A stretch of DNA of 64,000 bases from Candidatus Moraniibacteriota bacterium (GTDB lineage Bacteria > Patescibacteriota > Minisyncoccia > Moranbacterales > UBA1568), in assembly GCA_016699385.1 (NCBI GenBank), contig CP064974.1, positions 339,042 through 403,041 on the forward strand, given 5' to 3'. Below, piece after piece: positions 25,236 to 64,000 of the stretch. The notes under the pieces were generated by a model. It had not been told where the DNA came from, did no database searches, and worked only from the letters and a program-made list of their open reading frames with translations. How positions within the stretch are numbered: position 1 is the stretch's first letter; each line of letters begins with the position of its first letter. Made by a program: the position numbers and the translations under genes.

Positions 25236-26456
25236 ATGAGAATACTTTTGATTCATAAACGCCATTTTCTGGCGGGAGGAGCGGAAAGAGCCTATCTTGA
25301 GATGGCGGATGTTTTGATGCGCGCGGGGCATGAGGTTGCGTTCTTTTCCATGAAACACCCTAAGAATCATCCAACACCCTGGGAAAAATATTTCGTTGAC
25401 ACAGTAGATTATCAGGATTCGTCGATGAATTTTCTTGAAAAAATCAGGACGGTTGGAAAGATATTGTGGAATCGGCAGGCAGAAAAGAATATGGAACGGA
25501 TTATCCTTGATTTCAAGCCGGATATTGCACATGTTCATAACATTTTCCATCAAATATCTCCTTCTATATTCCGTCCACTCAAAAAGGCACATGTCCCCGT
25601 CGTGATGACATTACATGACTACAAACTGATCTCTCCGAATTACTATTTATTCGTTCGTGGGCGCATATGGGATCCGAAACGAGGTTCCTTATGGAAGTGT
25701 GTCAGAGACCGATGCGTTAAAGATAGTATTTGGAAGAGTTTGGTTTGTGCTATTGAGGGTTTGTTTCATCGAAGTATTCGTGCATATGATTCTATCCAGG
25801 CATTCTTTTCTCCTAGCCACTTCCTTGTAGAGAAATTCCGCGAATATCAATTTTCGAAAGAAGTGCAGTACCTGCCTAATCCTTTAGTTCCATTTCCTGA
25901 TGATCTCTCGTTCCTGCCCCTATCCGACGAGGCTCCATTTGTTTTTATTGGACGCCTTTCTCCGGAGAAAGGCGTTGATACGATTCTTCGCGCTGTTTCT
26001 CTATCAAGGGATATTGCAAAGGTTCGCATCGTTGGAGATGGTCCAGAAATGGAGTCTCTCCAAAGGCTTGCACGAGATCTTGGTGTGGAACCGCGCGTGG
26101 AGTTTTCCGGGTATCTTTCTGGAGAAGTGCTTGAAGAAGCAAGAAAGAATGCGCGAGCTATTATCATTACCTCTCTTTGGTATGAGAATATGCCATATGC
26201 GCTTACGGAGGCACTTGGCGCCGGTAAAGTTGTTATTGCTTCTCGTATCGGTGGAATTTCGGAACGAATCCAAGATAGTAAGAATGGATTTCTATTTCAT
26301 CCTGGCGACGAAAAAGAGCTTGCTGAAAAGATGCAATTAGCGAGCCGAGTCGATTCAGCTAAGATTGGTGGTCTTGCACGAGCATCTATTAGTGGTCTGC
26401 GCGAAGAAAAGTTTCTTGAAGAACTTCTCGCTGTGTACAGGCAGTTGGTTCCATAA
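25236..26456 (+). CDS. Glycosyltransferase family 4
   Basis: GT-B fold with the GT4 EX7E region (ITSLWYENMPYALTEALGAG). Start refined to the ATG at 25236 (MRILLIHK...). Confidence 0.8.
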   Translation: MRILLIHKRHFLAGGAERAYLEMADVLMRAGHEVAFFSMKHPKNHPTPWEKYFVDTVDYQDSSMNFLEKIRTVGKILWNRQAEKNMERIILDFKPDIAHVHNIFHQISPSIFRPLKKAHVPVVMTLHDYKLISPNYYLFVRGRIWDPKRGSLWKCVRDRCVKDSIWKSLVCAIEGLFHRSIRAYDSIQAFFSPSHFLVEKFREYQFSKEVQYLPNPLVPFPDDLSFLPLSDEAPFVFIGRLSPEKGVDTILRAVSLSRDIAKVRIVGDGPEMESLQRLARDLGVEPRVEFSGYLSGEVLEEARKNARAIIITSLWYENMPYALTEALGAGKVVIASRIGGISERIQDSKNGFLFHPGDEKELAEKMQLASRVDSAKIGGLARASISGLREEKFLEELLAVYRQLVP

Positions 26457-26501
26457 TGTTTTTGGGCTATCTTTTTAGAAAATCCATCGAAAGGAAAAAA
26501 T

Positions 26502-26527
26502 AAAACCGCCTGATGGCGGTTTTATTT
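26502..26527. terminator. Bidirectional rho-independent terminator between convergent genes
   Basis: Perfect hairpin aaaaccgcc-tgat-ggcggtttt with A and T runs on both sides. The minus-strand gene's stop codon lies within the stem. Confidence 0.75.
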
Positions 26528-27334
26528 GTGAATAGCTGTGTTTTGGATGGGGCTGTTTTTTCTATGGTAGACGTATGGATCTATTTGAAGTATGAGATGA
26601 ACCAGTGCTTCTTTTATGCAGAGGAGGGAATAGACGAAAACGTAGTTCCACGTTCGCCTCAATCTGCGTTGAGGTTGAAGCAAGAGTCGCCACAGCCATT
26701 CAAGACCGAACTTTCGGATGATGAATGGTGCTCGTTTCTGCTTGCCGGTAAGGAAGTCAAATGCCCCTCCTACTCCCATAGCAAGACAAACAGTGCTTCC
26801 GGGTATGCTTTGGAGTTGTGCCAGGGAAATTTCCTGAAGTCTTCCACCAAAATTGGAGAGAACGACGGAATGATTAGATGCCTTTCTCAACGATGTCTTT
26901 ATGGAAATCGGCGAATTTACTGAAACATCGGATCCGAACACTCGTAGTCTCGGAAATTTTTTCTTGATAGCAGACTTTGTTTCTTGAAAGGTGCTTAACC
27001 CACAACTATTGACCAAAAGAAAGACGGAAAGATTTGTATGCTCCGAGATTTCGAGTACGTACTCCATGAAGTCAGATCCGGGTACTCGTCCTTTGGGAAT
27101 TTTCCCTCTAAGAAGAAGAGGAATGTATATTCCAATCCCATCAATAGTCGAGAGGTCAGCATTATTAATGGCATCAAGGAATTCATTATCCCTCTGAGCC
27201 GTCATGATGAAATCGGGATTTATCGTGACAATCCGATGGAATTCCGTAGAACGCAAACTATTTTCTACGAAGCGCTTTGCTTCATCGATGGAGGTGTTCT
27301 GAATTGTGACGCCAAGGGCGCAAATACGGTCCAT
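26522..27334 (-). CDS. WecG/TagA/CpsF-family glycosyltransferase (GT26)
   Basis: 270 aa with family-typical blocks (TINPDF..., STIDGIGI, NFGGRLQE...). Consistent with UDP-ManNAc(A)/GlcNAc-type transferases acting on lipid-linked acceptors. Confidence 0.75.
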   Translation of the reverse strand: MDRICALGVTIQNTSIDEAKRFVENSLRSTEFHRIVTINPDFIMTAQRDNEFLDAINNADLSTIDGIGIYIPLLLRGKIPKGRVPGSDFMEYVLEISEHTNLSVFLLVNSCGLSTFQETKSAIKKKFPRLRVFGSDVSVNSPISIKTSLRKASNHSVVLSNFGGRLQEISLAQLQSIPGSTVCLAMGVGGAFDFLTGKQKRAPFIIRKFGLEWLWRLLLQPQRRLRRTWNYVFVYSLLCIKEALVHLILQIDPYVYHRKNSPIQNTAIHK

Positions 27335-27530
27335 ATGGTAACTTCAGTAAGTTCGAGAGCTGTATTGTTGCGAACGTATTAGTGTAGCAAAAATCAGGAT
27401 AATAGTCAAGTGGGCAGACGAGGTAAATAGTCGTGTTTTGTATGTATGCATTTTTTCATCCATTGACAAACCTGCTTTATTTTGCTATTGTTCACCGTTA
27501 ACTCTTTATGCCCTTCAGGGTCTGCGTTTT

Positions 27531-28481
27531 ATGAAGAATAATGTGAAATCATGGCTTATTGAAGCAGGAATATCGATTTTTATCGTAGGGACTATTGCGC
27601 TTCCGTTTTTTGGTTTTGCGCGAAGTGGTGACAAGATTTATGTAGACAAAGACGCTTCCGGTAGGGAAGATGGCTCGTCTTCGCATCCATACAAGACAAT
27701 TTCAAGCGGGCTTGATAAAGCAAGGGGTGGTGATGAGGTTATTGTGGCCTCCGGAACGTATAAGGAGCGAGTTACTATCCCGAGTGATGTGAAGCTCTCT
27801 GGCTCAGGACAGCAAAAAACTTTTATAAAATCCGATGACAAGGATGATGCTGTTGTGGAAATGAAAAGCGGATCAAAGCTATGGGGGTTTACTGTTGAAA
27901 ATGGGAGAATGGGGATTTATGTCAACAAAGATGCAAAGGTGGATATTGTAGGGTCTAGAATTCGTGACAATAGACATGAAGGTATCTTTGTGGAAAAAGG
28001 CGATCGAACCGATAGAAAGCTTGTGAGTATTTCAAAGGTTGAGATTATTGGTAACGGTTGGTCCGGAGTATATTCGAAGACGCGAAAAATTTCGATTACG
28101 GAATCCGACATAAAAGATAATGGTAAGAATGGCGTTGTATTCGAATCTGGTGTTCGTGCATGGATTGACAACAATTCAATTAGCGAGAATAAAGGATCTG
28201 GTCTTGTAATGAATCTTGATGGCGCCGATGTGACGGTTGCGAGCAAGAATACATTTCGCAAAAATGATCGTGAAGGAATCGAAGTGAGTTCGTATGGCAC
28301 AACGGGCACAATCGATATTAAGAAATCCCGTCTTTCAGAGAATGGGCACTATGGTGTCGCGAGAATTTCTCGGACGGCAAGTGCTTCCGTGTCGATATGG
28401 AACGGATTGGTGATTGAGGGAAATAATACTTTCTTCGGAAACGGTTTGGGGAATACGTCGCCAATTGTGAGAGGATTCTAA
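27531..28481 (+). CDS. Secreted right-handed parallel beta-helix repeat protein (NosD/pectate-lyase-like)
   Basis: N-terminal TM or signal anchor, followed by repeated ~22-aa beta-helix turns (I.DN...GI.V..., ENKGSGLVMN...). Start refined to 27531. Confidence 0.6.
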   Translation: MKNNVKSWLIEAGISIFIVGTIALPFFGFARSGDKIYVDKDASGREDGSSSHPYKTISSGLDKARGGDEVIVASGTYKERVTIPSDVKLSGSGQQKTFIKSDDKDDAVVEMKSGSKLWGFTVENGRMGIYVNKDAKVDIVGSRIRDNRHEGIFVEKGDRTDRKLVSISKVEIIGNGWSGVYSKTRKISITESDIKDNGKNGVVFESGVRAWIDNNSISENKGSGLVMNLDGADVTVASKNTFRKNDREGIEVSSYGTTGTIDIKKSRLSENGHYGVARISRTASASVSIWNGLVIEGNNTFFGNGLGNTSPIVRGF

Positions 28482-28564
28482 ATATCTGTCATCTGGTAAT
28501 TGCGTTCCTTACAAGACAAAAACAAAAACGAAAACGAAGGGGAAATTTCGTAACGACTTCTTGT

Positions 28565-29767
28565 ATGCGCATTGCGTTTATCGGGCAGAAAGGCATCCCA
28601 GCAAAATCCGGAAGTGTTGAGAAATATGTTGAGCGAATTTCGGTGCGCATGGCGGAGAAGGGTCATGATGTTTTTGTCTATGCGCGGGCGCACTATACCG
28701 ATCCGGAACTTCGTGCGTGGAAAGGGGTGCATATTATTCATGTACCGAGTATTCCAACGAAGCACTTGGATGCTATTTCGCATACCTTTTTTGCGACAGT
28801 GCACGCGCTTTTCCATCGTTACGATATCATTCATTATCAGGCGGTTGGACCGTCGATGCTCTCGTTTATTCCCGCAATGCTTTTGCGTCATGCGCAGGTA
28901 GTGTCTACCTTTCACTGTCGTGACTATTTTCATCAGAAGTGGGGGTGGATTTCACGGAGGGCACTTCGTTTTGGTGAGTGGGTTGCCTGTCGCGCTCCGA
29001 AGAAGACTATCGTTGTTTCGAAGGAGCTTCTCGAGTATACGAAGAAAAACTATGGCCGTCATGCGGAGTTTATTCCCAATGGGGCAAATATTTCCGAAAA
29101 GGCGATAGCGACAACACTTGGTGAATTTGGACTTCGTGAGGGTCGCTATGTGCTTTCGGTTGGGCGGCTCGTCGGACACAAAGGCGTGCACTATCTCATA
29201 AAGGCGTTTCTTGAGCTTGAGGATACGAACAAATTGCCGAATAATACGAAGCTTGTCATCGTCGGTTCGCATGCGAATACGAAGGACTACGAATCCTATC
29301 TCCATCTCATGGCGAAAGGACGAGAGAATGTTATCTTTCTCGGTGAACGCTTCGGACGAGAGCTCGAGGAATTGTTCTCGCATGCAGGACTCTTTGTGCA
29401 GCCGTCGGAATCCGAAGGCATGCCGATTGTTCTCCTCGAATCGATGGCACATGCCTTGCCGACACTGGCAAGTGATATCCGTGTGCATTGCGAAGTGCTC
29501 TCGGGTGTCGGGCTACTTTTTCAGAACAAGAACGTAGCAGACCTCCGTGACAAGATGGCCTTCCTCCTGAATGCGCCGGAAGAGGGGAGTCGACTTGGGG
29601 TTGCGGCGCAGAATCGTATTCGAAATGAATATTCTTGGGATGCTATTGCTGAGCGAACGTTATCTGTGTATGAGTCAATCCTGCCGCAGACGAAGAAGCT
29701 CAAGCGATTAAATTTCCGGAAGCGACTTCATGCTCAGCATATCCGTTCAATCGGAACCGAATTATGA
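28565..29767 (+). CDS. Glycosyltransferase family 4
   Basis: GT-B fold with the EX7E-like region (FVQPSESEGMPIVLLESMAHALP). Confidence 0.8.
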   Translation: MRIAFIGQKGIPAKSGSVEKYVERISVRMAEKGHDVFVYARAHYTDPELRAWKGVHIIHVPSIPTKHLDAISHTFFATVHALFHRYDIIHYQAVGPSMLSFIPAMLLRHAQVVSTFHCRDYFHQKWGWISRRALRFGEWVACRAPKKTIVVSKELLEYTKKNYGRHAEFIPNGANISEKAIATTLGEFGLREGRYVLSVGRLVGHKGVHYLIKAFLELEDTNKLPNNTKLVIVGSHANTKDYESYLHLMAKGRENVIFLGERFGRELEELFSHAGLFVQPSESEGMPIVLLESMAHALPTLASDIRVHCEVLSGVGLLFQNKNVADLRDKMAFLLNAPEEGSRLGVAAQNRIRNEYSWDAIAERTLSVYESILPQTKKLKRLNFRKRLHAQHIRSIGTEL

Positions 29768-31188
29768 TGAAATTCCTCGCCAATTTTTTTCAGGCATTCC
29801 CGCGGTATTTCTTTTTGCTCTTCGTGGTGTTTTTCGCAGTGGGATTTTTCGTTTTCTATGAATCATTCCGCATGTATCGTGCGGAATCGGAATTAATCGT
29901 GATTTCTCATGGACCTACGGTCTCTGCCGATGAGGTTGCTGTGACACTCTCGCACATTCCTTCGACGCTCTCTTTCTATGATCGACTCCGAGAGGATCAC
30001 AGCAATGTGAGTGATCCGTGGACAGGAGACTCTCCTGCTGATCGGAAGCTCGCGTGGAATCGTGTCATTGATGCGGCGTCAGTTTCTGGGAGCAGCGTGA
30101 TTCATCTGTCGGTTGTCGGCAGTGATCCATCACAGGCGAGTGCGTTGCTGAGCGCTTCTATCGAGACGCTCTATGGTTTCTCGGGGCGGTTGTATAATCG
30201 GAATACAGAGGCAGAGATGCGGCTTCTCGAAGACGTTATCGTTCGTTCGGTGGTGACAAATGCCTGGGCACTTTTCTTGCTTAGCGCTGTATGTTCGGCG
30301 CTTGCAGCGCTTCTCATTTCGTTGCTCTTGCAGAATTCGGAGAACTTTTTGAAACGAGCAACGCTTCCCGATATTTCTCTCTTTCGCGCAAAGTATCTTC
30401 CTGCACATTTGGGAGGGCAAGGGAAAGAGGGGATTCGTCCGGTAGGATCATTTCCGGATATTACGCAAGAAGAGAGTCATTTGCCATCTGAAGTGTCCAT
30501 AATTTCAGGCGAATCGGCATCTTCGACACTCTCGGCACCTCCAACTGAAGAAATATCTCCATCGCCTCATGTGAATGATATTGATGAGTTAGCATTATCG
30601 GTTGCAGAGCCTATAGAAAACAATGTAGACAAAGAATCTTCACCAAGTAGAGCCTCTTCAGAGTCTGTTTCAGGAGAAGAGAAAAGAGAAAGCTATGAGT
30701 CGAGAATGAGTGATGAACCGGAAGATATATGGGAGAAACCTCGTTTTGCTCCCGTAGGGAGAATGAGAATCGGCATGAAGCAGACAGGAGAGGGAGGTTT
30801 TTCTCAGAAGAATGCTTCCGAAGTTGCCCCTGCTGATGTTCGAAATGACACGGTGTCTGAAAAAATGCCGGAGAAGATTTCTGCAGAAGAGAAAAGGCAG
30901 GAAACAGTATCGGAGCAAGTCAGAACAACCTCTCATCGAAATGAAACGAGAGCGGGTGTTCCGGGGAATCTCACGACGGTTTCGGCACAGGATTTTACCT
31001 GGGATAAGTTTCTCTTTCAGGATGAGGAGAATAGTTCGAAAAAAGAGGAGAAGAAAGAAAGAGTGGATGAAGGAGAGTCAGAATCGAAGACAGAAGTTGT
31101 TTCAGCTTTGGAAAGCGCAGTGAAACACGAGCCGACGCCCGAAGAACTCAAGGCGCGACTCAATCAACTCTTACGAGGCGAGCTCTAA
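29764..31188 (+). CDS. Wzz-like PCP membrane protein fused to a ~290-aa Ser/Glu-rich disordered tail
   Basis: TM1, a ~150-aa extracytoplasmic domain, then TM2 (ALFLLSAVCSALAALLISLLL). After TM2 comes a long low-complexity acidic/Ser-rich tail ending in a short helix. Overlaps the upstream GT4 (ATGA). Confidence 0.5.
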   Translation: MMKFLANFFQAFPRYFFLLFVVFFAVGFFVFYESFRMYRAESELIVISHGPTVSADEVAVTLSHIPSTLSFYDRLREDHSNVSDPWTGDSPADRKLAWNRVIDAASVSGSSVIHLSVVGSDPSQASALLSASIETLYGFSGRLYNRNTEAEMRLLEDVIVRSVVTNAWALFLLSAVCSALAALLISLLLQNSENFLKRATLPDISLFRAKYLPAHLGGQGKEGIRPVGSFPDITQEESHLPSEVSIISGESASSTLSAPPTEEISPSPHVNDIDELALSVAEPIENNVDKESSPSRASSESVSGEEKRESYESRMSDEPEDIWEKPRFAPVGRMRIGMKQTGEGGFSQKNASEVAPADVRNDTVSEKMPEKISAEEKRQETVSEQVRTTSHRNETRAGVPGNLTTVSAQDFTWDKFLFQDEENSSKKEEKKERVDEGESESKTEVVSALESAVKHEPTPEELKARLNQLLRGEL

Positions 31189-31209
31189 GAATCTGTTTAT
31201 AATCGTCAT

Positions 31210-32595
31210 ATGAAACGCTACTCGTGGAAATTTTGGATACTGTTTTGGTCAATATCACTCCTCTTATTGTCGAGTTGGTTTTGTTTTCTCGAAATTCGAA
31301 ACGGTCACTGGAAACTTTTTGATGTACCGACGCGCATATTGCCCGTTTCAACAGAAACACGTAAGGATATGCGCGCGCTTTTGTCGATTGCCGACTTCGT
31401 ACTCAAGAAAGATGATGTGACGCGAACCTATCTCGTCCTCTTTCAAAACAATTATGAGCTTCGTCCGGGCGGGGGATTTATCGGATCATTTGGTATTGTA
31501 AAAATACGAAATGGCGAACTGCTCGATTTCGCCGTGCATGACACGGGGAACTTTGACGGGCGTATACCCTCGACGGTTTCGCCACCCTATCCGATGAAGG
31601 AATTGCTTCGTATCGATTCATGGAAACTGCGCGATTCGAATTATTCTCCGGACTTCCCGACCAATGCTCGGCAGGCGGAAACCTTTTACCAGATGGGCGA
31701 AGGCAGTGAATCATTCGACGGCATTGTCGGTATTACGACAGATGTCTTGGTGTCGTTTCTTGGTGTCACTGGTCCGGTCGAAGTACCGGGATATCCGGGC
31801 ACGTATGGTGGAGAGAGCGCCGTGTGGGATCTCGAATATCAGGTGGAGAAGGGCTTCATTGATCAGGGTATCGAGCGGGGGGATCGGAAGTCGATGATGA
31901 ATCTCTTGGGACTCCAGGTACTTGATCGTCTGAAATCTCTGAGCCTTACGGATCGGTACCGCTTGTTTGAGGTGGCACTTGCCGATCTTCATGCCAAGGA
32001 TATCCAGCTCTTCTTCGATGATGAGGGCGTGACGCAGAAAATTCAGGATGCCGGTTGGGACGGATCGATTAATCAGACATGGAAGAATGATTCTTTCCTT
32101 GCTGTCGATGCAAATTTGGGCGCGTGGAAGAGTGACTACTTCGTGAAACGTTCATACGAGTATACGGTAGATTTTTCTGGCGAAAAGCCTCAGGCGCGTT
32201 TTGCTCTTACTTATAATCATACGGCGACTGAGAAAGATTGGCGCGTCAACAATTACCAGTCATTCCTTCGTCTCTATGTGCCGAAGGGGAGCTGGCTTGT
32301 TTCGTCGGAGGGATTCTTGGGCGACACGACATTTGGTGATGAACTTGGCAGGAAAACTTTTGGCGGTATCGTACAAGTCCCCCTTGGAACAGAGAAAACA
32401 GTTGCGTTTACCTATACGCTTCCCGATACGGTATCGTCGGCGTTCTATGAACTTGATATTGAGAAGCAGCCGGGATTGCATCGCGTCCCTGTTTCAGTGA
32501 CGGTTATCAAGAAGGATGGATCGAAAATTCAGAAGCAATTTGTCTTGGATCGAAATGTACGGATACTTGCAACCGGCGAGCTGATTGAGCCATAG
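31210..32595 (+). CDS. DUF4012-like membrane-anchored protein
   Basis: N-terminal TM helix followed by the motif FQNNYELRPGGGFIGSFG, which I recognise as characteristic of DUF4012 proteins found in cell-wall glycopolymer loci. The family assignment is from memory and unverified. Confidence 0.45.
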   Translation: MKRYSWKFWILFWSISLLLLSSWFCFLEIRNGHWKLFDVPTRILPVSTETRKDMRALLSIADFVLKKDDVTRTYLVLFQNNYELRPGGGFIGSFGIVKIRNGELLDFAVHDTGNFDGRIPSTVSPPYPMKELLRIDSWKLRDSNYSPDFPTNARQAETFYQMGEGSESFDGIVGITTDVLVSFLGVTGPVEVPGYPGTYGGESAVWDLEYQVEKGFIDQGIERGDRKSMMNLLGLQVLDRLKSLSLTDRYRLFEVALADLHAKDIQLFFDDEGVTQKIQDAGWDGSINQTWKNDSFLAVDANLGAWKSDYFVKRSYEYTVDFSGEKPQARFALTYNHTATEKDWRVNNYQSFLRLYVPKGSWLVSSEGFLGDTTFGDELGRKTFGGIVQVPLGTEKTVAFTYTLPDTVSSAFYELDIEKQPGLHRVPVSVTVIKKDGSKIQKQFVLDRNVRILATGELIEP

Positions 32596-35888: not shown

Positions 35889-36079
35889 AACTTGTTGTAT
35901 GAGCAAATCCTTCAAGGTTGCGCAATTGGGAGGCAAGGTGATATGAGCAAAAGCCAAAAGAGTTGCTGACGTTCATGGTTTGGGAGTGACGTGGATTATT
36001 CGCGATGTTGTTCTTGGTAACTGAAGCGTCATGGGAGGGAGGTACAATAAGAGAAGGCAAGAGAAGCTGTGTTTTTTCT

Positions 36080-36625
36080 ATGAATTATCGCCGAAAACAA
36101 TTGAGTGCAGAGGATATTGAGCCAGTACTGCTTCGAATACAGCCGTCTCCGAAATACGGTGGCATTGGAGTTTTTGCTCTCCGCGATATTAAAGGGGGTA
36201 CGATATTATGTGATGTTGAGAAAATTAGCGAGGAAGTTTTCGTCCCCTGGGAAGAATTTGCAAAGATAGATGCGGCTACGCGATCGTTTATGATTGATTT
36301 TTGTGCCGAGGACAAGGATGGTTTCTATAGCCCGATTGATCTGAACTATCTCACCATTCCGGGACACATGAATCATCACTGTGAGGCGAATGTAGGATGT
36401 GATGCGGACGATAACTTCGTCGCAATACGAGATATCAAGAGGGGAGAAGAAGTGTGTCTTGATTACGCCTTCGTTATATCCAACCCTGCCTATACTATGA
36501 AATGCGCATGTGATTCCAAGAAATGTCGAGGGATAGTCACAGGAAATGACTGGAAAAACCCCGCCTTCCGGAAAAAGAATTCCAATTTTCTCTCATCAAA
36601 TGTGAGGAAATTTGCAAACAAATAA
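36080..36625 (+). CDS. SET-domain protein (putative protein-lysine methyltransferase) with post-SET Cys cluster
   Basis: Contains NHHCEAN (NHSCxPN-type), EEVCLDY (ELxxDY-type) and the post-SET cluster CACDSKKC. The ORF opens at 36005, but the likely start is the ATG at 36080. Confidence 0.7.
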   Translation: MNYRRKQLSAEDIEPVLLRIQPSPKYGGIGVFALRDIKGGTILCDVEKISEEVFVPWEEFAKIDAATRSFMIDFCAEDKDGFYSPIDLNYLTIPGHMNHHCEANVGCDADDNFVAIRDIKRGEEVCLDYAFVISNPAYTMKCACDSKKCRGIVTGNDWKNPAFRKKNSNFLSSNVRKFANK

Positions 36626-55139: not shown

Positions 55140-56240
55140 ATGAAAAAGAAGGTAAAGGTTGGGATTATTTTTGGGGGCAAGTCGGCAGAGCATGAGGTTT
55201 CTTTGCAATCAGCCAAGAATGTCATTGATGCAATTGATAAAGACAAATATGAACCTGTCCTTATTGGTGTAGACAAAAAGGGAAAATGGCCTTTGGTGGA
55301 AAGCTCAAAGTTTCTTTTAAGGAGTGGGAATCCAGAGTTAATTACACTCAACAACGAAACCGGTCAGAGCATCGCGCTCGTTCCACAAAGTGAAGGAAGA
55401 ATAGAAAACCTTGATACTCACGAATCGAATCAGTCTATCGATGTTGCATTTCCGATATTGCATGGCCCGTTTGGTGAGGATGGAACGGTGCAAGGCTTGC
55501 TGAAGCTTGCCAACATTCCTTTTGTGGGGGCAAGTGTTTTAGGTTCGGCAGTCGGAATGGACAAAGATATAATGAAGCGCTTGCTTCGAGACGCAGAAAT
55601 ACCAATAGGAAAGTTTTTGACGTTTACGGAAAGGGACATCCCGAGGTATGAAGAGGTTGTTAAAAATCTTGGGTTGCCGTTTTTTATAAAACCCGCAAAT
55701 ATGGGTTCATCGGTTGGAGTGAGTAAAGTTGTCGAGGAAAAAGACTTTGAAAAAGCAATCAAAGAAGCATTTAAATACGATAGGAAAATTCTTATTGAAG
55801 AGAATATCGAGGGACGAGAAATCGAATGTTCCATTCTCGGAAATGATGATCCGGTTGCTTCTGTTCCTGGGGAGGTTATCTCCAATCACGACTTTTATTC
55901 TTACGAAGCAAAGTATAGAGATGAACACGGTACAATACTTGAAATTCCAGCAAAGCTTCCGGAGGAGACTCGTAAAAGAGTTCAAATGCTCGCGGTAAAA
56001 ACTTTCAAAACCCTGTCTTGTGAGGGATTGGGGCGCATTGACTTCTTTCTCAAAAAGAATGGCGATATTTTGGTTAATGAAATCAACACCATGCCTGGAT
56101 TTACCTCGGCCAGCATGTACCCAAAATTATGGGAGGCAAGTGGAATTTCATATACCGAACTCATAGACCGCTTAATTCAGCTAGCGCAAGAAAGATTTAA
56201 CAAAGAACAAAAACTCAAAACATCCTATGATACGGAGTGA
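55140..56240 (+). CDS. ddl: D-alanine--D-alanine ligase
   Basis: ATP-grasp enzyme with a typical Ddl N-terminus (KVGIIFGGKSAEHEVSLQSA) and C-terminal motifs. Confidence 0.9.
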   Translation: MKKKVKVGIIFGGKSAEHEVSLQSAKNVIDAIDKDKYEPVLIGVDKKGKWPLVESSKFLLRSGNPELITLNNETGQSIALVPQSEGRIENLDTHESNQSIDVAFPILHGPFGEDGTVQGLLKLANIPFVGASVLGSAVGMDKDIMKRLLRDAEIPIGKFLTFTERDIPRYEEVVKNLGLPFFIKPANMGSSVGVSKVVEEKDFEKAIKEAFKYDRKILIEENIEGREIECSILGNDDPVASVPGEVISNHDFYSYEAKYRDEHGTILEIPAKLPEETRKRVQMLAVKTFKTLSCEGLGRIDFFLKKNGDILVNEINTMPGFTSASMYPKLWEASGISYTELIDRLIQLAQERFNKEQKLKTSYDTE

Positions 56241-56351
56241 CTTTCATGAGTTCACTAGGATAGAAAACAGTTAAACTCGATTATTGGGGAGTATTTGATG
56301 CTCACTGATAAGCCAAAAGTTTTTGGAGAATCTAATCTGTAAAAAGATGCG

Positions 56352-58046
56352 CTATTTCTCCGTGACAAGTGCGTCTGGGTTTGCGTCTTTGGAGAAGGTG
56401 ACGGAATCTTGGGTGAAGGTGCTTTCGTGAATGTCGATGTCTTTTGAAGAGGGGCCTGAAATGACGAGGCAATCTTTGCGGGCGAGGGGGCATCTCGTGT
56501 TCTTGAAGGTGATAGCTGAACTGTTGGCGATATCGAAGACAGAGCCTTTTGTCGGGACGGCGGAAATGGTATCAAATGTGAGAGAATTTGCCTCCTCTAT
56601 CTGGGAGCCCCATTTGGCGAATATTTTGATGTTTTTGAAAGTGATATCGGTAATTGGCTGTTCGATGAGTCCGCTGATTTCTATTGAGCGGTCGGTTTTC
56701 CCGACAGTCATGTTTTCTACATGGATATTGCGGAAAAGGGGGATGGCACCGACACCTTTGATGAAAGAGTTCTCATAGGAAGTAGTGAGCTGGATAGCAG
56801 CGATGGAGGCATAGTCTATCTTGATTCCATCTGCGTAAATGTTTTCAACGATACCACCACGACCTTTTGATGATTTGATGCGAAAGCCGTATTGTACCAT
56901 GTTTGCCGAGAGATTTTCGATGAAAACATTGCGTACATCGCCGGACATCTCACTGCCAATCGCGACGGCGGCATGTGCCTCGAGTATGGAATTATTGCGT
57001 ATGAGGACGTGCTCGGCGGGCATTCGGACACGGAGACCATCTCGGTTTCTGCCGGATTTGAGGACGATGGCATCGTCGCCCGTGCTAAAGACACTGTTTT
57101 CGATGAGGACGTTTTGGGAGGAGTCGAGGGCGACGCCGTCAGTGCTTTGTCCCTCGCTGGTTTCGATATGGACGCCGCGAACAATGATGTTTTTGCTATA
57201 GAGGGGATGAATCGTCCACATGGGACCGTTTTGTATGCTTACCCCTTCTACGAGCACGCGATCACAATTCATAAACTCTATGAATGCTGGGCGCAGAGAA
57301 TCCTTGACTGTTCCGAAGACGCGCTCGGATACGGGGGTGCCGTCATCTCCCATTTGGTAGAGTCTTTTGATGGGCTTGTCCCAGTTGCGCATCGCAGCCC
57401 ACCAGGCAGCTCCTTGACCATCAAGCGTGCCTTCGCCGGTGATAGCCACATTGAAGGCGTTTGCGGTGTAGATGGGCGCTGAGTAGTTGTAGTATTCGAT
57501 GCCTTCGAATCGGGAGAAGACTGCTGGCAAGTATTCTTCGAAGTTGGTGCTAAAGAGAATAGTCGAGCCTTTCTCGAGATGAAGATTGATATTGCTTGCG
57601 AGATGTATAGGACCGGTAAACCAGGTGCCGGGAGGCACGATCACAGTTCCACCGCCAGTACGGGCGCAATCGTCTATTGTTTTCCGAAAGGCTTCTGTAT
57701 TGGAAGTGACACCATCGCTTATGGCGCCATAGTCGACAATCGAGCAGGTATGCTCAGGAAAGCCAACTTCCTCAAGAGTAAATGATGCACCGGAGAGGGT
57801 TTTGAGCGTTGCGACAGATGTCGGGGGTGGGATGAGCTTGGATATATCTGGAAATTCACGAGGAATTTCGGGCGCTTCCACAGAATCAGTATTCTCTGGG
57901 GAAATTTTTTTGGTAAAGACTGTCGATGAGGAACTCAATTCGCGAAGCTGCTCTCCGTAAAGAGTCCATACTCCGAAGAGTACGCTGATAACAAGTCCCC
58001 CCAGAAGGATGAGTATCAATGGCATGCGAAAATTCCCTCGAGGCAT
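56352..58046 (-). CDS. Membrane-anchored glycoside hydrolase family 28-like (polygalacturonase-type) beta-helix protein
   Basis: N-terminal TM anchor. GH28 signature blocks STDG, GDDAIVLKSG (GDDCIAIKSG-type), AIGSEMSG (G.SIGSE-type) and FRIKSSKGRGG (RIK). Confidence 0.7.
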   Translation of the reverse strand: MPRGNFRMPLILILLGGLVISVLFGVWTLYGEQLRELSSSSTVFTKKISPENTDSVEAPEIPREFPDISKLIPPPTSVATLKTLSGASFTLEEVGFPEHTCSIVDYGAISDGVTSNTEAFRKTIDDCARTGGGTVIVPPGTWFTGPIHLASNINLHLEKGSTILFSTNFEEYLPAVFSRFEGIEYYNYSAPIYTANAFNVAITGEGTLDGQGAAWWAAMRNWDKPIKRLYQMGDDGTPVSERVFGTVKDSLRPAFIEFMNCDRVLVEGVSIQNGPMWTIHPLYSKNIIVRGVHIETSEGQSTDGVALDSSQNVLIENSVFSTGDDAIVLKSGRNRDGLRVRMPAEHVLIRNNSILEAHAAVAIGSEMSGDVRNVFIENLSANMVQYGFRIKSSKGRGGIVENIYADGIKIDYASIAAIQLTTSYENSFIKGVGAIPLFRNIHVENMTVGKTDRSIEISGLIEQPITDITFKNIKIFAKWGSQIEEANSLTFDTISAVPTKGSVFDIANSSAITFKNTRCPLARKDCLVISGPSSKDIDIHESTFTQDSVTFSKDANPDALVTEK

Positions 58047-58066
58047 AGCGGAGAGTGTTTCAAAAT

Positions 58067-59923
58067 TTATTCTGATGAAGTTTCTCGGAGAAAGAGTTGT
58101 TCGCTAGGGATGACTTTGACAAAGTTGTCCAATCGATTTCCAATTGTGAATGTATTCGCGGTTTCGTCTGTTTCGTAGGCTTTCTTGAAATCGAGCGGGT
58201 CGCTTCCGGGATGAGAGAGCTTGAGTGTTCTTGATCGACGCCCCGAGGAAACGACGACATAGTCGACGTGAAGATTGCGCAAATCTTTCTGACTGAGACC
58301 CGTGCGACATTCTCCGATAAAGGCAGCGCAGACCGCTCCCTTGTCCGACCAGATGCTGATATCGCGTGGATTGGGAAGATGATTGAGGAAGTCAGCTGCT
58401 TCCCAGCTTCCATCGCCCATGTCCTTGAGATTGACGAAATAGGGTTTTGGGAGAAGTGATGAGGTGTAAGCGAAATAGAATGGTTTGACAGAAAGAAGGC
58501 TGATGTAGGATATGGCAAGAATGATAAGGATAGCTACGAGGGGGGAGAGATATTTTCGGAGTCGCTCTGAAGAGAGGAGGAAGGAAATGCCGATTGCCGA
58601 AAGAATAAACGCGAAAGGGAAAAGAGTTATCTGATATCTGACGGTGGCAATAACATGATTGACGGTTGAGGCGGTGTAGTAGAGGAGTATGAAGATTACG
58701 AGAAAGAAGGCGATTTTGGTTTCTCTTGAATCGATATGTTTTTTCATCATACCCATGACGAGTGTCGCCATGAGCGCCACAAGTGCAAGTGGCGAGATGC
58801 CAAACATAAGGCTGTAGAGATCGGCAACAATATTGTCAGCAAAGATAAAAAGTCGGGAATCATCTCCTCCGGAGCCTTTCGGAGAGGCAAGAGAAGCATC
58901 GGTGCTAAAGATGCTCATGCCACTCAGAGTGTTGAATGCCACAAAAAGAAGGGCGATGATGAGTATGCCGAATGCAACGCGAATAAATAGTATGCGATAT
59001 TTCGAGAGCGTATTGAGGATGAATGATGTTACGGTGTTCTTGAAGAGAAGAGCATCAGCGACGATGAGGGTGATGAGTCCGGCAAAGAGCGGCCACGTAC
59101 TTGCGAAAGCCTTACTGAGAAATGTCCCTTCGAGAATCATTTCGGGGTGCTTCCATGTTGCTGGAAAGAGGGCGAAAAATGTTGCCAAGGAGATAGCGAC
59201 GAGTAAAAAGTAGTGTATTGCGGAGCGCTTCAAATAGGCTCGCATGTCTGGCTTGTCCTTGGAGAGAATGTATTCTAGGAAAGGGAGGACAAAGAAAAAT
59301 ATATAGAGAATATTGGCGACGTATTTGGTGAGGAGTGAAAGCCCGAGGAAGATACCGCTTGTGTAGAGGTACTTTTTCTCAGCATTCTTCTGAAAGACGA
59401 AATAGCTCAACACGGACAGCGGGAGAAATATCCAAAGGAGTGAGTCGGGATTGATGATGAGGGAGATGCCGAGGAGTATCGGAGAGAGTCCGATGAAGAC
59501 GAAGGCAACAAGGGCGGTTGTTTCATCGAATAATTTTTTGAGAAAAATATAGAAAAGTGGAAGAGAGATGAGGCAAAATAGGAAAATCGGAAGACGAAAG
59601 AAAAAGTTGATGTCATTGATGGCGCGAAGCTCTTCATCTGTCTTCACATCATCGCGGAGACTTTTGTAAGGAAGTGGGTCGATCTTCAGGAGTCCGGCGC
59701 CGGAGAGAATAGCGGTAGTGATGCCAGGCTTGTCATTGATATTGGTCGAACGCCATTTTCCCTCAGCGATAGCCTTCCAGAATTTTGGCGTTCGCCCGTA
59801 TGTCCAGTAAGGTTCATCGACGGCAGAGTAGGATTCGAGACGCAGGAGCCCGAGCGAGAGATTGATGGCAAGTACTGCGGTGATAATAAATGGTGCAATG
59901 TATCTTTTGTAGGATATTTTCAT
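58067..59923 (-). CDS. PMT/ArnT-family (GT39/GT83-like) lipid-carrier-dependent glycosyltransferase
   Basis: 618 aa with ~12 TM helices. The N-terminal DE-containing first-loop region and overall topology match GT-C mannosyl/arabinosyl transferases. Confidence 0.6.
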   Translation of the reverse strand: MKISYKRYIAPFIITAVLAINLSLGLLRLESYSAVDEPYWTYGRTPKFWKAIAEGKWRSTNINDKPGITTAILSGAGLLKIDPLPYKSLRDDVKTDEELRAINDINFFFRLPIFLFCLISLPLFYIFLKKLFDETTALVAFVFIGLSPILLGISLIINPDSLLWIFLPLSVLSYFVFQKNAEKKYLYTSGIFLGLSLLTKYVANILYIFFFVLPFLEYILSKDKPDMRAYLKRSAIHYFLLVAISLATFFALFPATWKHPEMILEGTFLSKAFASTWPLFAGLITLIVADALLFKNTVTSFILNTLSKYRILFIRVAFGILIIALLFVAFNTLSGMSIFSTDASLASPKGSGGDDSRLFIFADNIVADLYSLMFGISPLALVALMATLVMGMMKKHIDSRETKIAFFLVIFILLYYTASTVNHVIATVRYQITLFPFAFILSAIGISFLLSSERLRKYLSPLVAILIILAISYISLLSVKPFYFAYTSSLLPKPYFVNLKDMGDGSWEAADFLNHLPNPRDISIWSDKGAVCAAFIGECRTGLSQKDLRNLHVDYVVVSSGRRSRTLKLSHPGSDPLDFKKAYETDETANTFTIGNRLDNFVKVIPSEQLFLRETSSE

Positions 59924-60123
59924 GGGAATAATACAAAAAATGTATCTTTCAACAGCGATTTTATGATACAGGAAATGAAGAGGTTTGCAAAGAAGACATG
60001 GCTTGTAGAGAGCATTATCGCTTTACGAAGAGCGCTTGGAGGTGATAGAATACCCCATGGTATTATAGTATTGAATCGAGTACTCTCTGTCCAAAAGAGC
60101 ATGAGCTTATACGCAAAGCCTTT

Positions 60124-61887
60124 ATGAATATTCTAACGAAACATTGGGGAATTTTTGCTTTGCTTACTATTCTGGCTGGAGCGATTTTTGTGCGGACGTA
60201 TTCCTTGGATACCTGGCTCTACTTCAAGATGGATCAATCGAGAGATGCGCTCCTTATGACGGAAGTACTCGAAAATGGACCGAGCGCTTTGCCGCTTCTT
60301 GGTCCCCGAGTTGGCGCGGTGGCACTCCAGCACGGATTTCTGCGGCTTGGTCCGATTTACTACTATTTCCAATATCTATCGGGCATTCTCTTTCATTCAT
60401 CGGAACCAGTAGTCTTCGCCTACCCGGATGTATTTTTCTCGATTGCCGCCATTCCACTGCTCTATCTCTTTGCTCGGCTCTATTTCGAAAAGCGTCTCGC
60501 TTTGATGATTACCGCGATGTATGCGTTTTCATTTCTTATCATTCAGTACTCCCGATTTGCTTGGAATCCAAATTCACTGCAATTTTTTATTCTTCTGAGT
60601 TTCTACGGACTTTTGCGATTTTTGAATGAGAGTCGCCCCGCGCCGAAACGCTGGTGGCTCGCGCTCTGGGCAGTGGGGAGTGCTATCGGTTCACAACTGC
60701 ACTTCTTCGGTTTCTTCAGTTTGCTCGGCATTTCTGGACTTCTGATACTTTTCCATTTGCGCATTTGGGAGAAAGCCTCATGGAGGACGTTTGTTCAGAA
60801 AGAATCTCTTCGGCAGTTCGCGGTGTTTTCCGTTATTGTCCTCGGAGTATTCGCTGTGTTTTATACGCCGGTTATCATCAGCGATAGTCTTCGTGGCGGT
60901 GAAAACACGAGGAATTTCTTCGAAGCGCTTGGCTCAAAGGCGGAGAAAAAACCGTTTATCGAAAAACTACAGAAAACTGTGACGGAGAATCTGAAGTATT
61001 CCTGTCTTCTCATGACATCGGAATGTTATTCTGGTGACGTAGGGGATAATATTCCGATGGTGAGTTTGACGGGCATTCTTCTTTTTATGGGTGTGATGCT
61101 CGCGATTCGCGGCGTGCGAAATGAAAAGAACACTCTTCGTCGAGATTTCCTCGTGCTCATTCTCTTGTGGCTTGGTGTTTTCATTGTTCTCACAGAGCCG
61201 GTTTCTTTTCAGCTTCGCCCGCGCTTTTATATCGTCATCTTTGCTGTGCCATTTCTGCTTCTGGGCGTTCTTTTCACCTTCATCGAGGAGCGTTTCGGAA
61301 AGCGAGCGATTCTCGTGTCATCATTCATGACGCTTGGCATTGTCGCGCTCAATGCGCATGGAACATGGCTCTGGTTTGCAGAGCAAGCAAAAGCGCAAAC
61401 AAAAGCCGTCGCCGTGAAACGAACACTCATCTTGAAAACCAAAGACGGCGTGACGCTCGGGCAATTGCGTGGAGTAGCTGAATGGATATACGTGCGGATG
61501 AAGCCGGAGAATACCCTCTATTACTATGTCAAACCAGAACATCAACGCCCGATAAAATTTCTTTTGCTCTCGCAGCGGGACGCATCGCTTCGCATTGAAT
61601 TACTCAAAATGAATGGCGATCCGCACGCGCAGTTTTTTGCTATCACGCCTGCGAAGAATGGGAAAAAAGGCATTGCCAATAAATTGAAGCGTCCGGAGAC
61701 GGAATTCACGGTTCTTGAATCGAAGCAATTTGGCGAGCTTTTGGTCTCGGAAGTTGAATTTCCTTCTCGGAGTATTTCTGAGAGTTTCAAATACAAAGGA
61801 GGAAGTGGTGATAAAGCGGATCGGGAAGGAGAGAGTGACCGCAGTTATTGGAAGGATGTTTTTCCAACGACTTCTTCTAAGAAATAA
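60124..61887 (+). CDS. PMT/ArnT-family GT-C glycosyltransferase, tandem paralog 1
   Basis: 587 aa. Shares the N-terminal pattern FVRTY..D.WL.F..DQSRDA...LPLLGP..G with the two downstream ORFs. Confidence 0.6.
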   Translation: MNILTKHWGIFALLTILAGAIFVRTYSLDTWLYFKMDQSRDALLMTEVLENGPSALPLLGPRVGAVALQHGFLRLGPIYYYFQYLSGILFHSSEPVVFAYPDVFFSIAAIPLLYLFARLYFEKRLALMITAMYAFSFLIIQYSRFAWNPNSLQFFILLSFYGLLRFLNESRPAPKRWWLALWAVGSAIGSQLHFFGFFSLLGISGLLILFHLRIWEKASWRTFVQKESLRQFAVFSVIVLGVFAVFYTPVIISDSLRGGENTRNFFEALGSKAEKKPFIEKLQKTVTENLKYSCLLMTSECYSGDVGDNIPMVSLTGILLFMGVMLAIRGVRNEKNTLRRDFLVLILLWLGVFIVLTEPVSFQLRPRFYIVIFAVPFLLLGVLFTFIEERFGKRAILVSSFMTLGIVALNAHGTWLWFAEQAKAQTKAVAVKRTLILKTKDGVTLGQLRGVAEWIYVRMKPENTLYYYVKPEHQRPIKFLLLSQRDASLRIELLKMNGDPHAQFFAITPAKNGKKGIANKLKRPETEFTVLESKQFGELLVSEVEFPSRSISESFKYKGGSGDKADREGESDRSYWKDVFPTTSSKK

Positions 61888-61896
61888 AGAAAGTGC

Positions 61897-63552
61897 ATGA
61901 AACAGTGGATAGACTTCAGACTGAATCATCCCTCTTCTTGGTGGAGAAGTCCTCTTTTTCGGATTTCTTTGTCGCTCTTTGTGATTCTCGCAGTTGGGAT
62001 ATTCGTCCGTACGTACCATTTTCACGAATGGCTTCACTTCGGGTCGGATCAAGCAAGAGATGTGATGCTGGTGGGGGATGTGATAGAGGGGAAAGAACCT
62101 TTGCCACTCCTTGGCATGGAGGCGGGGAATACCCGATTCGACCTCGGTCCGGCGTACTACTATTTCCAGATATCATCCGCAAAACTCTTTGGTGTTCGTC
62201 CTGAAACCATGGCGTATCCAGATGTCCTGCTTTCGATACTGGCAATTCCACTCGCCTTCTTTCTTTTTCGCAAGCTCTTTGATATACGTCTCTCCCTTGC
62301 ACTTACAGGGCTCTATGCGATTTCCTTTTACGTTGTCGAATACTCTCGATTTGCATGGAATCCCAATGCAATTCCGTTTTTTGTGGGGCTTTTTTTGTTG
62401 TCCCTGACTGAATTCATGGAAGCGGAGGAAATGACTAGGTGGCAGTGGATATTGGCGCTCGGCATCGCTATCGGCATCGGGATACAATTGCATACTATTC
62501 TTTTGTTTCTATTTCCTGCGATACTCGTAGGCATCTTCCTTCTCTTCTTGAAGAAAAATTCCGGCGTGGTGTTGCGTCTTTTGAGTATCATTGTCATTGT
62601 GCTGACACTCAATATTCCGCAGATACTGAGTGAGGTGCACACTCATGGGAAAAATACGAAGCTTTTTTTGAAAGCATTCACTGATCGATCGGAAAGTAGT
62701 AGCGCGCAATTTACAGAAAGTCTTGAAACAGATATTCTCTGTCATGCGCAGGCAAATTCGCATATACTTTCGGCATTGGGACATCATGGAAATTGCAATT
62801 TTCTCTTGCTTCTCGAACATCCTGAGAGGTTTCTCGATATTTCTTCGCTGATTCTCTCGTATGGCGGGATTGTACTCAGTGTTTTATTTTCTCTCATTGG
62901 CTATTCATTGCTGGCATATCTCGCATTCAAAGAATCCGATCCAAGACGGAAAAAATTTTTGATTGTTGTGCTGATATATGTGGGACTATCATTTGCCATT
63001 CTTTTTTCCGTCATTCGTGGAGCGCCACTTCGCTACTTCATTTACGCAACCTATATCCCATTCATACTCTTTGGATTAATCCTTGTTCAAATCCGGAAGT
63101 ATCTTCCGAATTGTTCTCGCGGTATTATTGTGGGCGCGCTCGTTGTATCTGCGCTCTTGAATATACGAGCGATAGGGAGGGAAGCATTGCAGCTTGCAAC
63201 GGGAACGCGTGGAGACTCTGGGTTTGTTGTGCTGGGCGAGGCAGAGCGAATGGTTGCGTATATGAAGGAACGATCCGAACCATGGACGGAGGCAAATCTC
63301 GCAGGCGGGACAGCGTATTTCTCAACCTATTACAAGTCGCTCAAGTATGTCGCGGCGCAAGAGGGTCTCGATATCCACCTTGCCAAGCGGAAACGCCCTC
63401 CAGTATCCGAACTCCCGTATTTCCTCATCTACAAACCATTTGACCAAAGAGAGCCTTCCTTTGCAAAAGGATACGATGTGCTCGATCATCGTGACTTCGG
63501 ACAGATAGGCATCTATCAGTTGCGCAGTGTACAATATCGGACTTCAGAATAA
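61897..63552 (+). CDS. PMT/ArnT-family GT-C glycosyltransferase, tandem paralog 2
   Basis: 551 aa, clearly paralogous to 60124..61887 (FVRTYHFHEWLHFGSDQARDV...AYPDVLLSILAIPL). Confidence 0.6.
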   Translation: MKQWIDFRLNHPSSWWRSPLFRISLSLFVILAVGIFVRTYHFHEWLHFGSDQARDVMLVGDVIEGKEPLPLLGMEAGNTRFDLGPAYYYFQISSAKLFGVRPETMAYPDVLLSILAIPLAFFLFRKLFDIRLSLALTGLYAISFYVVEYSRFAWNPNAIPFFVGLFLLSLTEFMEAEEMTRWQWILALGIAIGIGIQLHTILLFLFPAILVGIFLLFLKKNSGVVLRLLSIIVIVLTLNIPQILSEVHTHGKNTKLFLKAFTDRSESSSAQFTESLETDILCHAQANSHILSALGHHGNCNFLLLLEHPERFLDISSLILSYGGIVLSVLFSLIGYSLLAYLAFKESDPRRKKFLIVVLIYVGLSFAILFSVIRGAPLRYFIYATYIPFILFGLILVQIRKYLPNCSRGIIVGALVVSALLNIRAIGREALQLATGTRGDSGFVVLGEAERMVAYMKERSEPWTEANLAGGTAYFSTYYKSLKYVAAQEGLDIHLAKRKRPPVSELPYFLIYKPFDQREPSFAKGYDVLDHRDFGQIGIYQLRSVQYRTSE

Positions 63553-63590
63553 TATTCGCGGAAATCTTTTCGAACAATGACGAAAATACC

Positions 63591-64000
63591 TATGAGCCAT
63601 CTTGCTCTCACATTTCGGAAAGTACCATGGACGATCTGGGTGCTTGCAGGAATTCTCGTTATTGGAATTTTTGTTCGGACCTATCATTTTCATGACTGGC
63701 TTCGTTTCAATGCTGATCAGTCACGAGATGCTGGAATCGTGAGCAGTGTTATTGAAGGAGAAACATCGCTTCCGCTTCTTGGACCGAAGGCTGGTGGAAC
63801 GGACTTTCGGCTTGGTTCGGCTTTTTACATGTTTCAGATTGTTTCCGCTAAGATATTTGGGGATCGTCCGGATGTGATGGCGTATCCAGATCTTCTGAGT
63901 TCTATCCTCTCTATTCCACTTCTCTATTGTTTTCTTCGGCTCTACTTCGAGAGAAAGACATCGCTCCTTCTCACGACCGTTTTTGCAGTTTCTTTCTACG
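63591..64000 (+). CDS. PMT/ArnT-family GT-C glycosyltransferase, tandem paralog 3 (5' fragment; runs off the window)
   Basis: Begins MTKIPMSHLALTFRKVPW...FVRTYHFHDWLRFNADQSRDAGIV...AYPDLLSSILSIPL. Same family as the two preceding ORFs. Confidence 0.55.

Follow-up and report, generated by a model that had tools for sequence, protein, structure and literature searches.

We analysed an array of genes for membrane glycosyltransferases of the GT-C class, named A, B, C and D, at the right-hand end of a 64,000-nucleotide (nt) stretch of DNA from a Candidatus Moraniibacteriota bacterium (CP064974.1, positions 339,042-403,041; hereafter the window). Gene A lies on the minus strand, and B, C and D follow one another on the plus strand, divergently from A. 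A gene for a glycoside hydrolase of family GH28 stands next to A. The genes, with lengths in amino acids (aa), and the sites between them are as follows.

56352-58046, minus strand: membrane-anchored β-helix glycoside hydrolase of the GH28 family (Pfam Glyco_hydro_28, E 1e-27)
58067-59923, minus strand: A, GT-C glycosyltransferase of the A-type subfamily, 618 aa in the list of open reading frames (ORFs)
59963-59990, minus strand: promoter-like site of the A-GH28 operon (TTGCAA, N16, TATCAT)
60022-60051, plus strand: promoter-like site of the B-C-D operon (TTTACG, N18, TGaTAGAAT, an extended -10)
60124-61887, plus strand: B, GT-C glycosyltransferase of the B-type, member B1, 587 aa, the conserved divergent partner of A
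61897-63552, plus strand: C, GT-C glycosyltransferase of the B-type, 551 aa, starting 9 nt past the stop codon of B
63592-64000, plus strand: D, GT-C glycosyltransferase of the B-type, N-terminal 136 aa, the gene being cut by the window end

The ORF list bears out the four ORFs of a preliminary description of this DNA, with one correction: the frame given for D, beginning at 63591, is interrupted by stop codons, and the true start is the ATG at 63592, whose equivalent is used in the record of a close relative (L002), or an in-frame ATG at 63577. The fragment of D is 97% identical to a 524-aa protein of L002 (8240-9814). Spacers of 9 nt between B and C and of 24-39 nt between C and D are short, which fits a single operon.

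All four proteins belong to the family that had been proposed for them, PMT/ArnT-like GT-C glycosyltransferases. Scores for Pfam PMT_2 and PMT were 47.7 and 36.1 bits for A, 26.4 and 38.6 bits for B, and 45.3 and 34.6 bits for C, all above the gathering cutoffs (26.1 bits for PMT_2, PF13231, and 22.7 bits for PMT, PF02366). Truncated D reached 21.0 bits against the cutoff of 26.1, and the full-length L002 ortholog of D matched PMT_2 at 39.1 bits. With NCBIfam, matches to the four proteins were weak and all below threshold. None of them matched an ArnT or Arn-pathway model, and B and C matched TIGR03663 (‘flippase activity-associated protein Agl23’) at 24-25 bits, against a cutoff of 126.

The four proteins do not form a single paralog group. 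Judged by BLASTP similarities far above chance, B, C and D are true paralogs (B-C, 31% identity over 425 aa, E 5e-49; C-D, 59% over 116 aa; B-D, 48% over 130 aa). In contrast, A aligned with the trio at only about 21% identity over 156 aa (E about 0.01), and profile-profile comparison with hhalign, using a 62-sequence B-type alignment and a 49-sequence A-type alignment, gave only an 87-column match with a probability of 50%. A has the same fold and Pfam family as B, C and D, and is outside their paralog group. We therefore distinguish two subfamilies, the B-type, which on these comparisons comprises B, C, D and a further gene E, and the A-type, which comprises A and a further gene F; E and F are both located past the window end. 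F, 41% identical to A, is its real relative. The all-against-all alignment suggested in the preliminary description thus upholds tandem paralogy for B, C and D, whose full-length identity is 31-36%, and removes A, described there as the fourth paralog, to a separate subfamily. The N-terminal consensus pointed out in the same description (IFVRTY, WL.F..DQ.RD, LPLLG, AYPD, IPL) was found in B, C and D, and its positions vary little or not at all across 62 homologs.

Divergence among the B-type paralogs B, C, D and E is unevenly distributed along the proteins. Identity amounts to 47-57% in residues 20-165, which extend from the first transmembrane helix to the RFAWNPN motif, and to 12-32% in the remainder, which includes a presumably external soluble domain at the C terminus. 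For orthologs it is 61-85% along the whole length. Such a conserved module joined to a diverged remainder most likely means that the paralogs handle the same or a similar sugar, each with a different acceptor position or linkage.

Structure prediction with AlphaFold gave models of high quality scores for C (predicted local distance difference test, pLDDT, 90.5; predicted template modelling score, pTM, 0.91) and A (pLDDT 85.7, pTM 0.90), in which a multi-pass membrane domain with a GT-C fold was found. The closest structure to C in Foldseek was ArnT (TM score 0.54, 12% identity). On their predicted structures, A and C are clearly GT-C enzymes, at much the same distance from every branch with a solved structure, and the modelled fold gives no indication of the acceptor. 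Searches of PDB sequences with single proteins and with a 50-sequence profile, up to an E value of 1, returned no homolog; the only matches were two for B, both due to chance (E 0.25 and 0.98), one being to a designed repeat protein and the other to a ribosomal protein.

Invariant residues are numerous in both subfamilies. In the 62 B-type sequences they are, in C numbering, R38, W45, F48, D51, Q52, D55, A106, S143, R151-F152-A153, N155, N157, Q197, H199, N253 and R379. The A-type has a block V35-D36-E37-P38-Y39-W40 (VDEPYW) after the first transmembrane helix, with D36 and E37 invariant in 49 sequences, and many more invariant positions, including two cysteines in the C-terminal extracytoplasmic domain. 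An acidic motif thus occurs about 10-15 residues past the first transmembrane helix in the models of both types. The loop that bears it, loop 1, presumably faces outward, and the catalytic acidic residues are predicted to lie in this first external loop, within DQxRD in the B-type and VDEPYW in the A-type. The loop-1 pair is D36-E37 in the A-type versus D-Q in the B-type; the Asp-Glu pair resembles the ‘DE’ motif of GT39.

The GH28 gene begins 20 nt downstream of A, and the two are probably co-transcribed. Its product has a single N-terminal transmembrane helix (residues 8-26), and its best NCBIfam match was the exo-acting α-D-galacturonidase BT4155, at 333 bits, below the cutoff of 800. The catalytic segments of GH28 are NTD, G/QDD, G/SHG and RIK; the protein has their counterparts in the correct order (STDG301, GDDA323, AHA357 and RIK389) and retains all three catalytic Asp. 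The enzyme is probably active. The association with A-type enzymes recurs in two further forms. First, a second GH28 gene follows F in the related locus L005, which makes two A-type/GH28 modules, A-GH28a and F-GH28b. Second, two protein clusters of 1,060 aa, P0215 and P0233, consist of an A-type GT-C protein fused to GH28; in P0233, residues 9-598 match A at 51% identity, and residues 609-1060 match the GH28 of the window, less its anchor, at 47%. Given the adjacency of A and GH28 and these fusions, we conclude that both proteins probably act together, outside the membrane. No description of a GT-C-GH28 transferase-hydrolase fusion was found in the literature searched.

The array runs past position 64000, where the rest of D, a YdjC-type gene, E and F follow, as seen in L002. 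In close relatives, the full order is GH28 and A on one strand, B, C, D, YdjC, E, F and a second GH28 on the other, and then a GT2 gene on the opposite strand. L002 is 97% identical in DNA to window positions 56352-64000, and carries this series from GH28 to F, after which the contig ends. L005, whose proteins are about 76-80% identical, carries all of it, from GH28 to GT2. L001, from a complete genome of 1.09 Mb, has the same order, with a 99-aa B-type remnant in the place of F. The YdjC protein, confirmed by Pfam, belongs to a cytoplasmic sugar-deacetylase family. The locus GT2 protein can be aligned over its whole length with PgfS (232 bits) and with ArnC (151 bits), in neither case reaching the equivalog cut-off, and has two C-terminal transmembrane helices, a predicted architecture which is that of the polyprenyl-phosphate sugar synthases. 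As a whole, we consider that the region is best explained as the left part of a conserved Moraniibacteriota cell-envelope glycosylation locus, an explanation to which we give about an even chance of being right.

Some variation was observed around and within these loci. The similarity between L002 and the window breaks exactly at the stop codon of GH28 (56352), and L002 positions 1-990, an F420-ligase-family gene, had no match anywhere in the 64-kb window; either a rearrangement at the edge of the locus or a join made in the assembly could be the cause. The L001 remnant, an ORF at 15836-16135, is a B-type GT-C fragment that contains AYPDLLFSVLTIPL at the position occupied by F in L002 and L005, indicating gene decay inside the array. 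In L038, a multi-pass membrane protein of about 716 aa without Pfam match is encoded at 3163-5313, flanked by the B ortholog and the B-type gene that comes after it. Gaps of about 1.8-2.9 kb (mostly about 2.2 kb) are present at the same position in L006, L007, L010, L013, L017, L041 and L048, and those in L011, L015 and L016, where A is outside the fetched stretch, are possibly equivalent. This protein, present in many Moraniibacteriota arrays and absent from the lineage of the window, could be a flippase, or another glycosyltransferase that has escaped recognition.

Promoters in both directions had been anticipated for the 200-nt spacer between A and B, and putative sigma-70-like sites are indeed recognisable there, conserved in four related genomes. 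In the A-side site, 4 of 6 positions of the -35 box and 5 of 6 of the -10 box are invariant across the window, L002, L001 and L005; in the B-side site, the block GCTTTACG...TGATAGAAT is invariant in the same four loci, whose flanking proteins are only about 75% identical. A consensus promoter scan of 56200-64000 found 13 sites versus 10.2 ± 2.9 in shuffled sequences, which is not above chance, so that the promoter assignment relies on conservation across genomes instead. In the window and L002, the leader between the B-side promoter and the start of B (60052-60123 of the window) exceeds that of L001 and L005 by about 47 nt.

We then estimated the age and spread of the array. A scan of a genome collection with one protein found no relatives, whereas a motif- and alignment-based scan, in which each species was represented by a single genome, gave 261 confirmed relatives, of which the best 71 loci, from 53 assemblies, were used. 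Nearly all of these assemblies are labelled Moraniibacteriota, Paceibacteria or Parcubacteria, and the named homologs of both A- and B-type proteins are almost all from Candidatus Moraniibacteriota (Moranbacteria). Searches of the ORFs of these 71 loci with hidden Markov models revealed a recurring pattern, an A gene on the minus strand divergent from a B gene on the plus strand, followed by 2-8 further B-type genes. A clear B ortholog, defined as scoring more than 200 bits above any paralog, was present in 31 of the 38 loci holding an A-type gene, and was adjacent to it and divergent in 24 of the 38; such B orthologs are 43-77% identical. Clear orthologs of D, C and E were found in 19, 14 and 2 of 72 loci, respectively. 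Lower bounds for the number of GT-C copies per assembly, across the 53 species genomes, were a median of at least 6 and a maximum of at least 13. Among 1.84 billion representatives, the B-type profile matched 599 clusters at E ≤ 1e-30 and 2,110 at E ≤ 1e-10, which makes it a small, lineage-centred family.

Identity levels speak against a recent origin. Paralogs inside one genome are 28-37% identical, versus 69-79% for positional orthologs between the window and L001; across the phylum, orthologs are 43-61% identical, and overall 43-80% in other Moraniibacteriota, in the same order. Relative to L002, the ratio of nonsynonymous to synonymous polymorphism (pN/pS) is 0.06-0.14 for each of GH28, A, B, C and D, indicating strong purifying selection on all of these genes. 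Taken together, the gap between paralogs and orthologs, the phylum-wide pattern and the low pN/pS indicate that the array is ancient, selected and lineage-wide, and that genes are gained and lost slowly, above the level of strains. The recent amplification implied in the preliminary description is thus not supported, the proteins being other than recent paralogs, which that description itself had named as the result that would overturn it. Its suggestion of strain specificity fares no better, since L002, at 97% identity, and two other relatives whose proteins are about 75% identical have the same genes in the same order. Copy number, which it had proposed to compare, does vary, from 3 to 9 per run, but between distant lineages rather than strains.

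What do these enzymes make? The favoured mechanism runs in steps. A GT2 enzyme of the GtrB/ArnC/PgfS type would take a sugar from a nucleotide donor and attach it to undecaprenyl phosphate at the cytoplasmic face, where the YdjC-type deacetylase may modify the lipid-linked sugar. After a candidate flipping step across the membrane, the GT-C enzymes would transfer the sugar at the external face of the membrane. The B-type paralogs would share a common catalytic and donor module, use the same or a similar sugar, and differ in acceptor position or linkage. They would thus jointly build or decorate a surface glycopolymer stepwise, as the Emb/Aft arabinosyltransferases do in mycobacteria, and each A-type enzyme would work with a membrane-anchored, exo-galacturonidase-like GH28 hydrolase trimming or remodelling the same glycan. 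The fold, family, paralogy, conservation, purifying selection, gene neighbourhood, fusions and promoters are directly supported by the results above; the donor lipid, the outside topology, the identity of the sugar and the acceptor are what we infer from them. The window itself encodes an undecaprenyl-pyrophosphate phosphatase, BacA/UppP (7882-8676). We estimate at roughly one in two the chances that a surface glycan is assembled or decorated outside the membrane from undecaprenyl-phosphate sugars; the galacturonidase-like match of GH28 hints at a uronic-acid-containing polymer. A stepwise glycopolymer is favoured because of the many individually conserved paralogs and of the hydrolase and deacetylase partners. 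The surface glycan or glycoprotein role put forward in the preliminary description is plausible.

Known systems offer partial parallels to such a pathway. In the Gtr, CsbB/YfhO, GtrB/PgtC2 and PgfS/PgfM1 systems, a GT-A enzyme with C-terminal transmembrane helices makes a sugar-phosphate-undecaprenol, and a GT-C enzyme transfers the sugar outside the cell, a two-step logic demonstrated in streptococci (PMC12041528). Unlike here, their GT-C partners are of the YfhO or GtrII families instead of PMT_2, there are usually one or two GT-C genes versus six, and a search for a GtrA-like flippase found none here. The embCAB genes are a tandem array of paralogs. EmbC, EmbA and EmbB, with AftA-D, share one polyprenyl-phosphate donor for arabinan and split among them the linkages of one cell-wall polysaccharide (PMC5964476), a division of labour comparable to the conserved catalytic module and diverged remainder described above. 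They differ in belonging to other CAZy and Pfam families and in having no hydrolase partner, and the Emb proteins, with their large carbohydrate-binding domains, reach about 1,100 aa. In the PpgS-Rv3779 pathway, which puts galactosamine on arabinogalactan, the lipid-linked sugar is modified by deacetylation before GT-C transfer (PMC5964476), which parallels YdjC. In rhizobia, the ArnT-like paralogs of the RgtE-RgtA/B/C/D system put galacturonic acid (GalA) on lipopolysaccharide, RgtA and RgtB among them (PMC4402001), which parallels the hint from GH28. Both likenesses are by analogy, the sugar here being guessed from a sub-threshold GH28 match.

Several observations weigh against a stepwise surface glycopolymer. 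Among the fetched loci, GH28 is directly downstream of only 12 of 59 A-type genes. Only part of the 71 loci have GH28, YdjC and GT2 in the neighbourhood of the array, within flanks of at most 10 kb and often on short contigs. GT2 and the second GH28 are known from relatives only, as the window stops inside D, and a sugar of the GalA type is suggested solely by the below-threshold GH28 subfamily match. Neither acceptor, donor sugar nor flippase was identified; when a GtrA- or ArnE/F-like flippase was sought in the locus, only a small ORF was found, in L001, which is the decayed B-type fragment.

Protein O-glycosylation, which we hold to be unlikely, remains a serious rival to the polymer reading. 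The paralogs would act like Pmt proteins, transferring single sugars from an undecaprenyl-phosphate sugar to Ser/Thr residues of secreted or membrane proteins (pili, adhesins, disordered Ser/Thr-rich tails), with different paralogs for different protein substrates, as in yeast PMT1-7 or streptococcal PgfM1/PgtC2. Matches to both Pfam PMT, above threshold, and PMT_2 agree with this, as do the A-type Asp-Glu of loop 1, resembling the GT39 ‘DE’ motif, and the existence, among the Pmts (GT39; yeast Pmt1-Pmt2 and Pmt4, actinobacterial Pmt), of paralog families with different substrates; NCBI names many homologs ‘glycosyltransferase family 39 protein’. In addition, GT2 has its best NCBIfam match in PgfS, a synthase that serves in a protein-glycosylation system (PMC12041528). 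However, identity to the solved Pmts is only 11-15%, the array proteins have no MIR domain, and the B-type motif is DQxRD rather than DE. GH28, paired or fused, and the YdjC deacetylase fit a glycan polymer better than the addition of single sugars to proteins, and speak against a role confined to protein mannosylation. Finally, no strongly Ser/Thr-rich protein adjoins the locus: among eight uncharacterised window proteins checked, the highest Ser+Thr fraction per 40 aa was 0.35, in a probably Wzz-like protein (29764-31188) about 27 kb away.

Modification of a lipid in the manner of ArnT, by transfer of an aminosugar or a uronic acid onto a membrane lipid or glycolipid, altering surface charge, seems to us quite improbable. 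ArnT (GT83) is the transferase of 4-amino-4-deoxy-L-arabinose (L-Ara4N) from undecaprenyl phosphate to lipid A. It resembles the array proteins by its PMT_2 domain, similar size and small C-terminal external domain, and JGI labels many of the homologs ‘Ara4N transferase-like’. The GT2 of the orthologous locus aligns with ArnC over its full length, though PgfS is the better match; YdjC recalls the step of the ArnD and PpgS pathways in which a lipid-linked sugar loses a formyl or acetyl group; and the transfer of GalA by RgtA and RgtB (PMC4402001) is a precedent for ArnT-like enzymes acting on a uronic acid. Yet identity to ArnT is about 12%, with no PDB sequence match even with a profile and no NCBIfam match to ArnT or the Arn pathway in any of the four proteins. 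An array of six or more conserved paralogs, versus one ArnT gene, is also large for one lipid target, and the GH28 partners are foreign to the Arn and Rgt systems. Moreover, Parcubacteria, of the candidate phyla radiation (CPR), are not known to have lipopolysaccharide or lipid A, and lipid A is expected to be absent from this organism. A resistance function like that of ArnT was rejected as the principal explanation, there being no equivalog match and no lipid A expected.

It is slightly less probable still that some of the paralogs are not transferases, being silent scaffolds, subunits of hetero-oligomers or flipping-associated proteins. GT-C hetero-dimers are known (Pmt1-Pmt2, EmbA-EmbB), none of the genes of the locus was recognised as a flippase, and B and C weakly match Agl23 (TIGR03663); but this match is far below threshold, and every paralog keeps the acidic motif of loop 1 and other polar invariants. 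Least credible of all, and rejected as the principal explanation on identity levels, gene order and pN/pS, is a recent, strain-variable tandem amplification generating surface-glycan diversity: the variation of run length between lineages, the different left flank of L002 and the decayed fragment in L001 would suit it, the last however indicating gains and losses over long times, and no near-identical copies exist within the window.

Returning to the surface glycopolymer, a bolder version of it, which we offer as a speculation with the odds clearly against it, is that Moraniibacteriota, with genomes of about 1 Mb, keep a phylum-wide machine of 6 to at least 13 GT-C enzymes, with an A-type/GH28 core, that would polymerise and edit a uronic-acid surface polymer entirely outside the membrane, this being their main envelope glycan and possibly an interface with a host. 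If so, the GT-C synthase-hydrolase fusion would be a new architecture. CPR bacteria have very small genomes and cell envelopes that are little understood. Six or more selected membrane glycosyltransferases in genomes of about 1 Mb suggest that an extracytoplasmic surface glycan is central to their biology, and this glycan may play a part in how they attach to partner cells. For experiments, the locus offers two enzymes to work with, the GT2 synthase and the GH28 hydrolase, as well as invariant catalytic residues. The enzyme class is already known, homologs are annotated in public records, and the array is a family expansion; no description of the Moraniibacteriota array was found in the literature on Moranbacteria, Parcubacteria and Patescibacteria with GT39, GT-C, ArnT-like or polygalacturonase.

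The rest of the window consists of ordinary chromosomal genes (thyA, folA, PBP2, greA, uppP, SMC, LysRS, SerRS, frr, secA, prfA-like, ftsX and ddl), among which other genes related to glycans are found. A separate, second glycan cluster is located at 23739-32595, and may make a polymer that the GT-C enzymes decorate. Its genes are the following.

23739-25124, minus strand: Wzy_C-type polymerase/ligase
25206-26456: GT4 glycosyltransferase
26522-27334, minus strand: WecG/TagA-type glycosyltransferase
27438-28481: β-helix protein
28565-29767: GT4 glycosyltransferase
29764-31188: protein with two transmembrane helices and a long Ser/Glu-rich tail, probably Wzz-like
31210-32595: DUF4012 protein

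A third envelope-glycan spot of the 64-kb window, at 1723-4602, is directly upstream of a gene for a PBP2-type transpeptidase, and the remaining features are scattered.

1723-2880: GT4 glycosyltransferase
2959-4602: membrane protein weakly resembling Wzy_C (26.7 bits against a gathering score of 31.7)
4631-6532: PBP2-type transpeptidase
16273-17328: BNR/sortilin-repeat protein
36005-36625: SET-domain protein
43953-44432: TspO/MBR-family protein
46463-51028, minus strand: membrane protein of 1,521 aa, containing a short glucosyltransferase segment of the MdoH-like kind and, at the C terminus, a PF10091 ‘glycoamylase’ domain

From its domains, the 1,521-aa protein looks like a giant enzyme of the β-glucan synthase type. 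The SET-domain, TspO/MBR and BNR/sortilin-repeat genes are uncommon for so small a genome.

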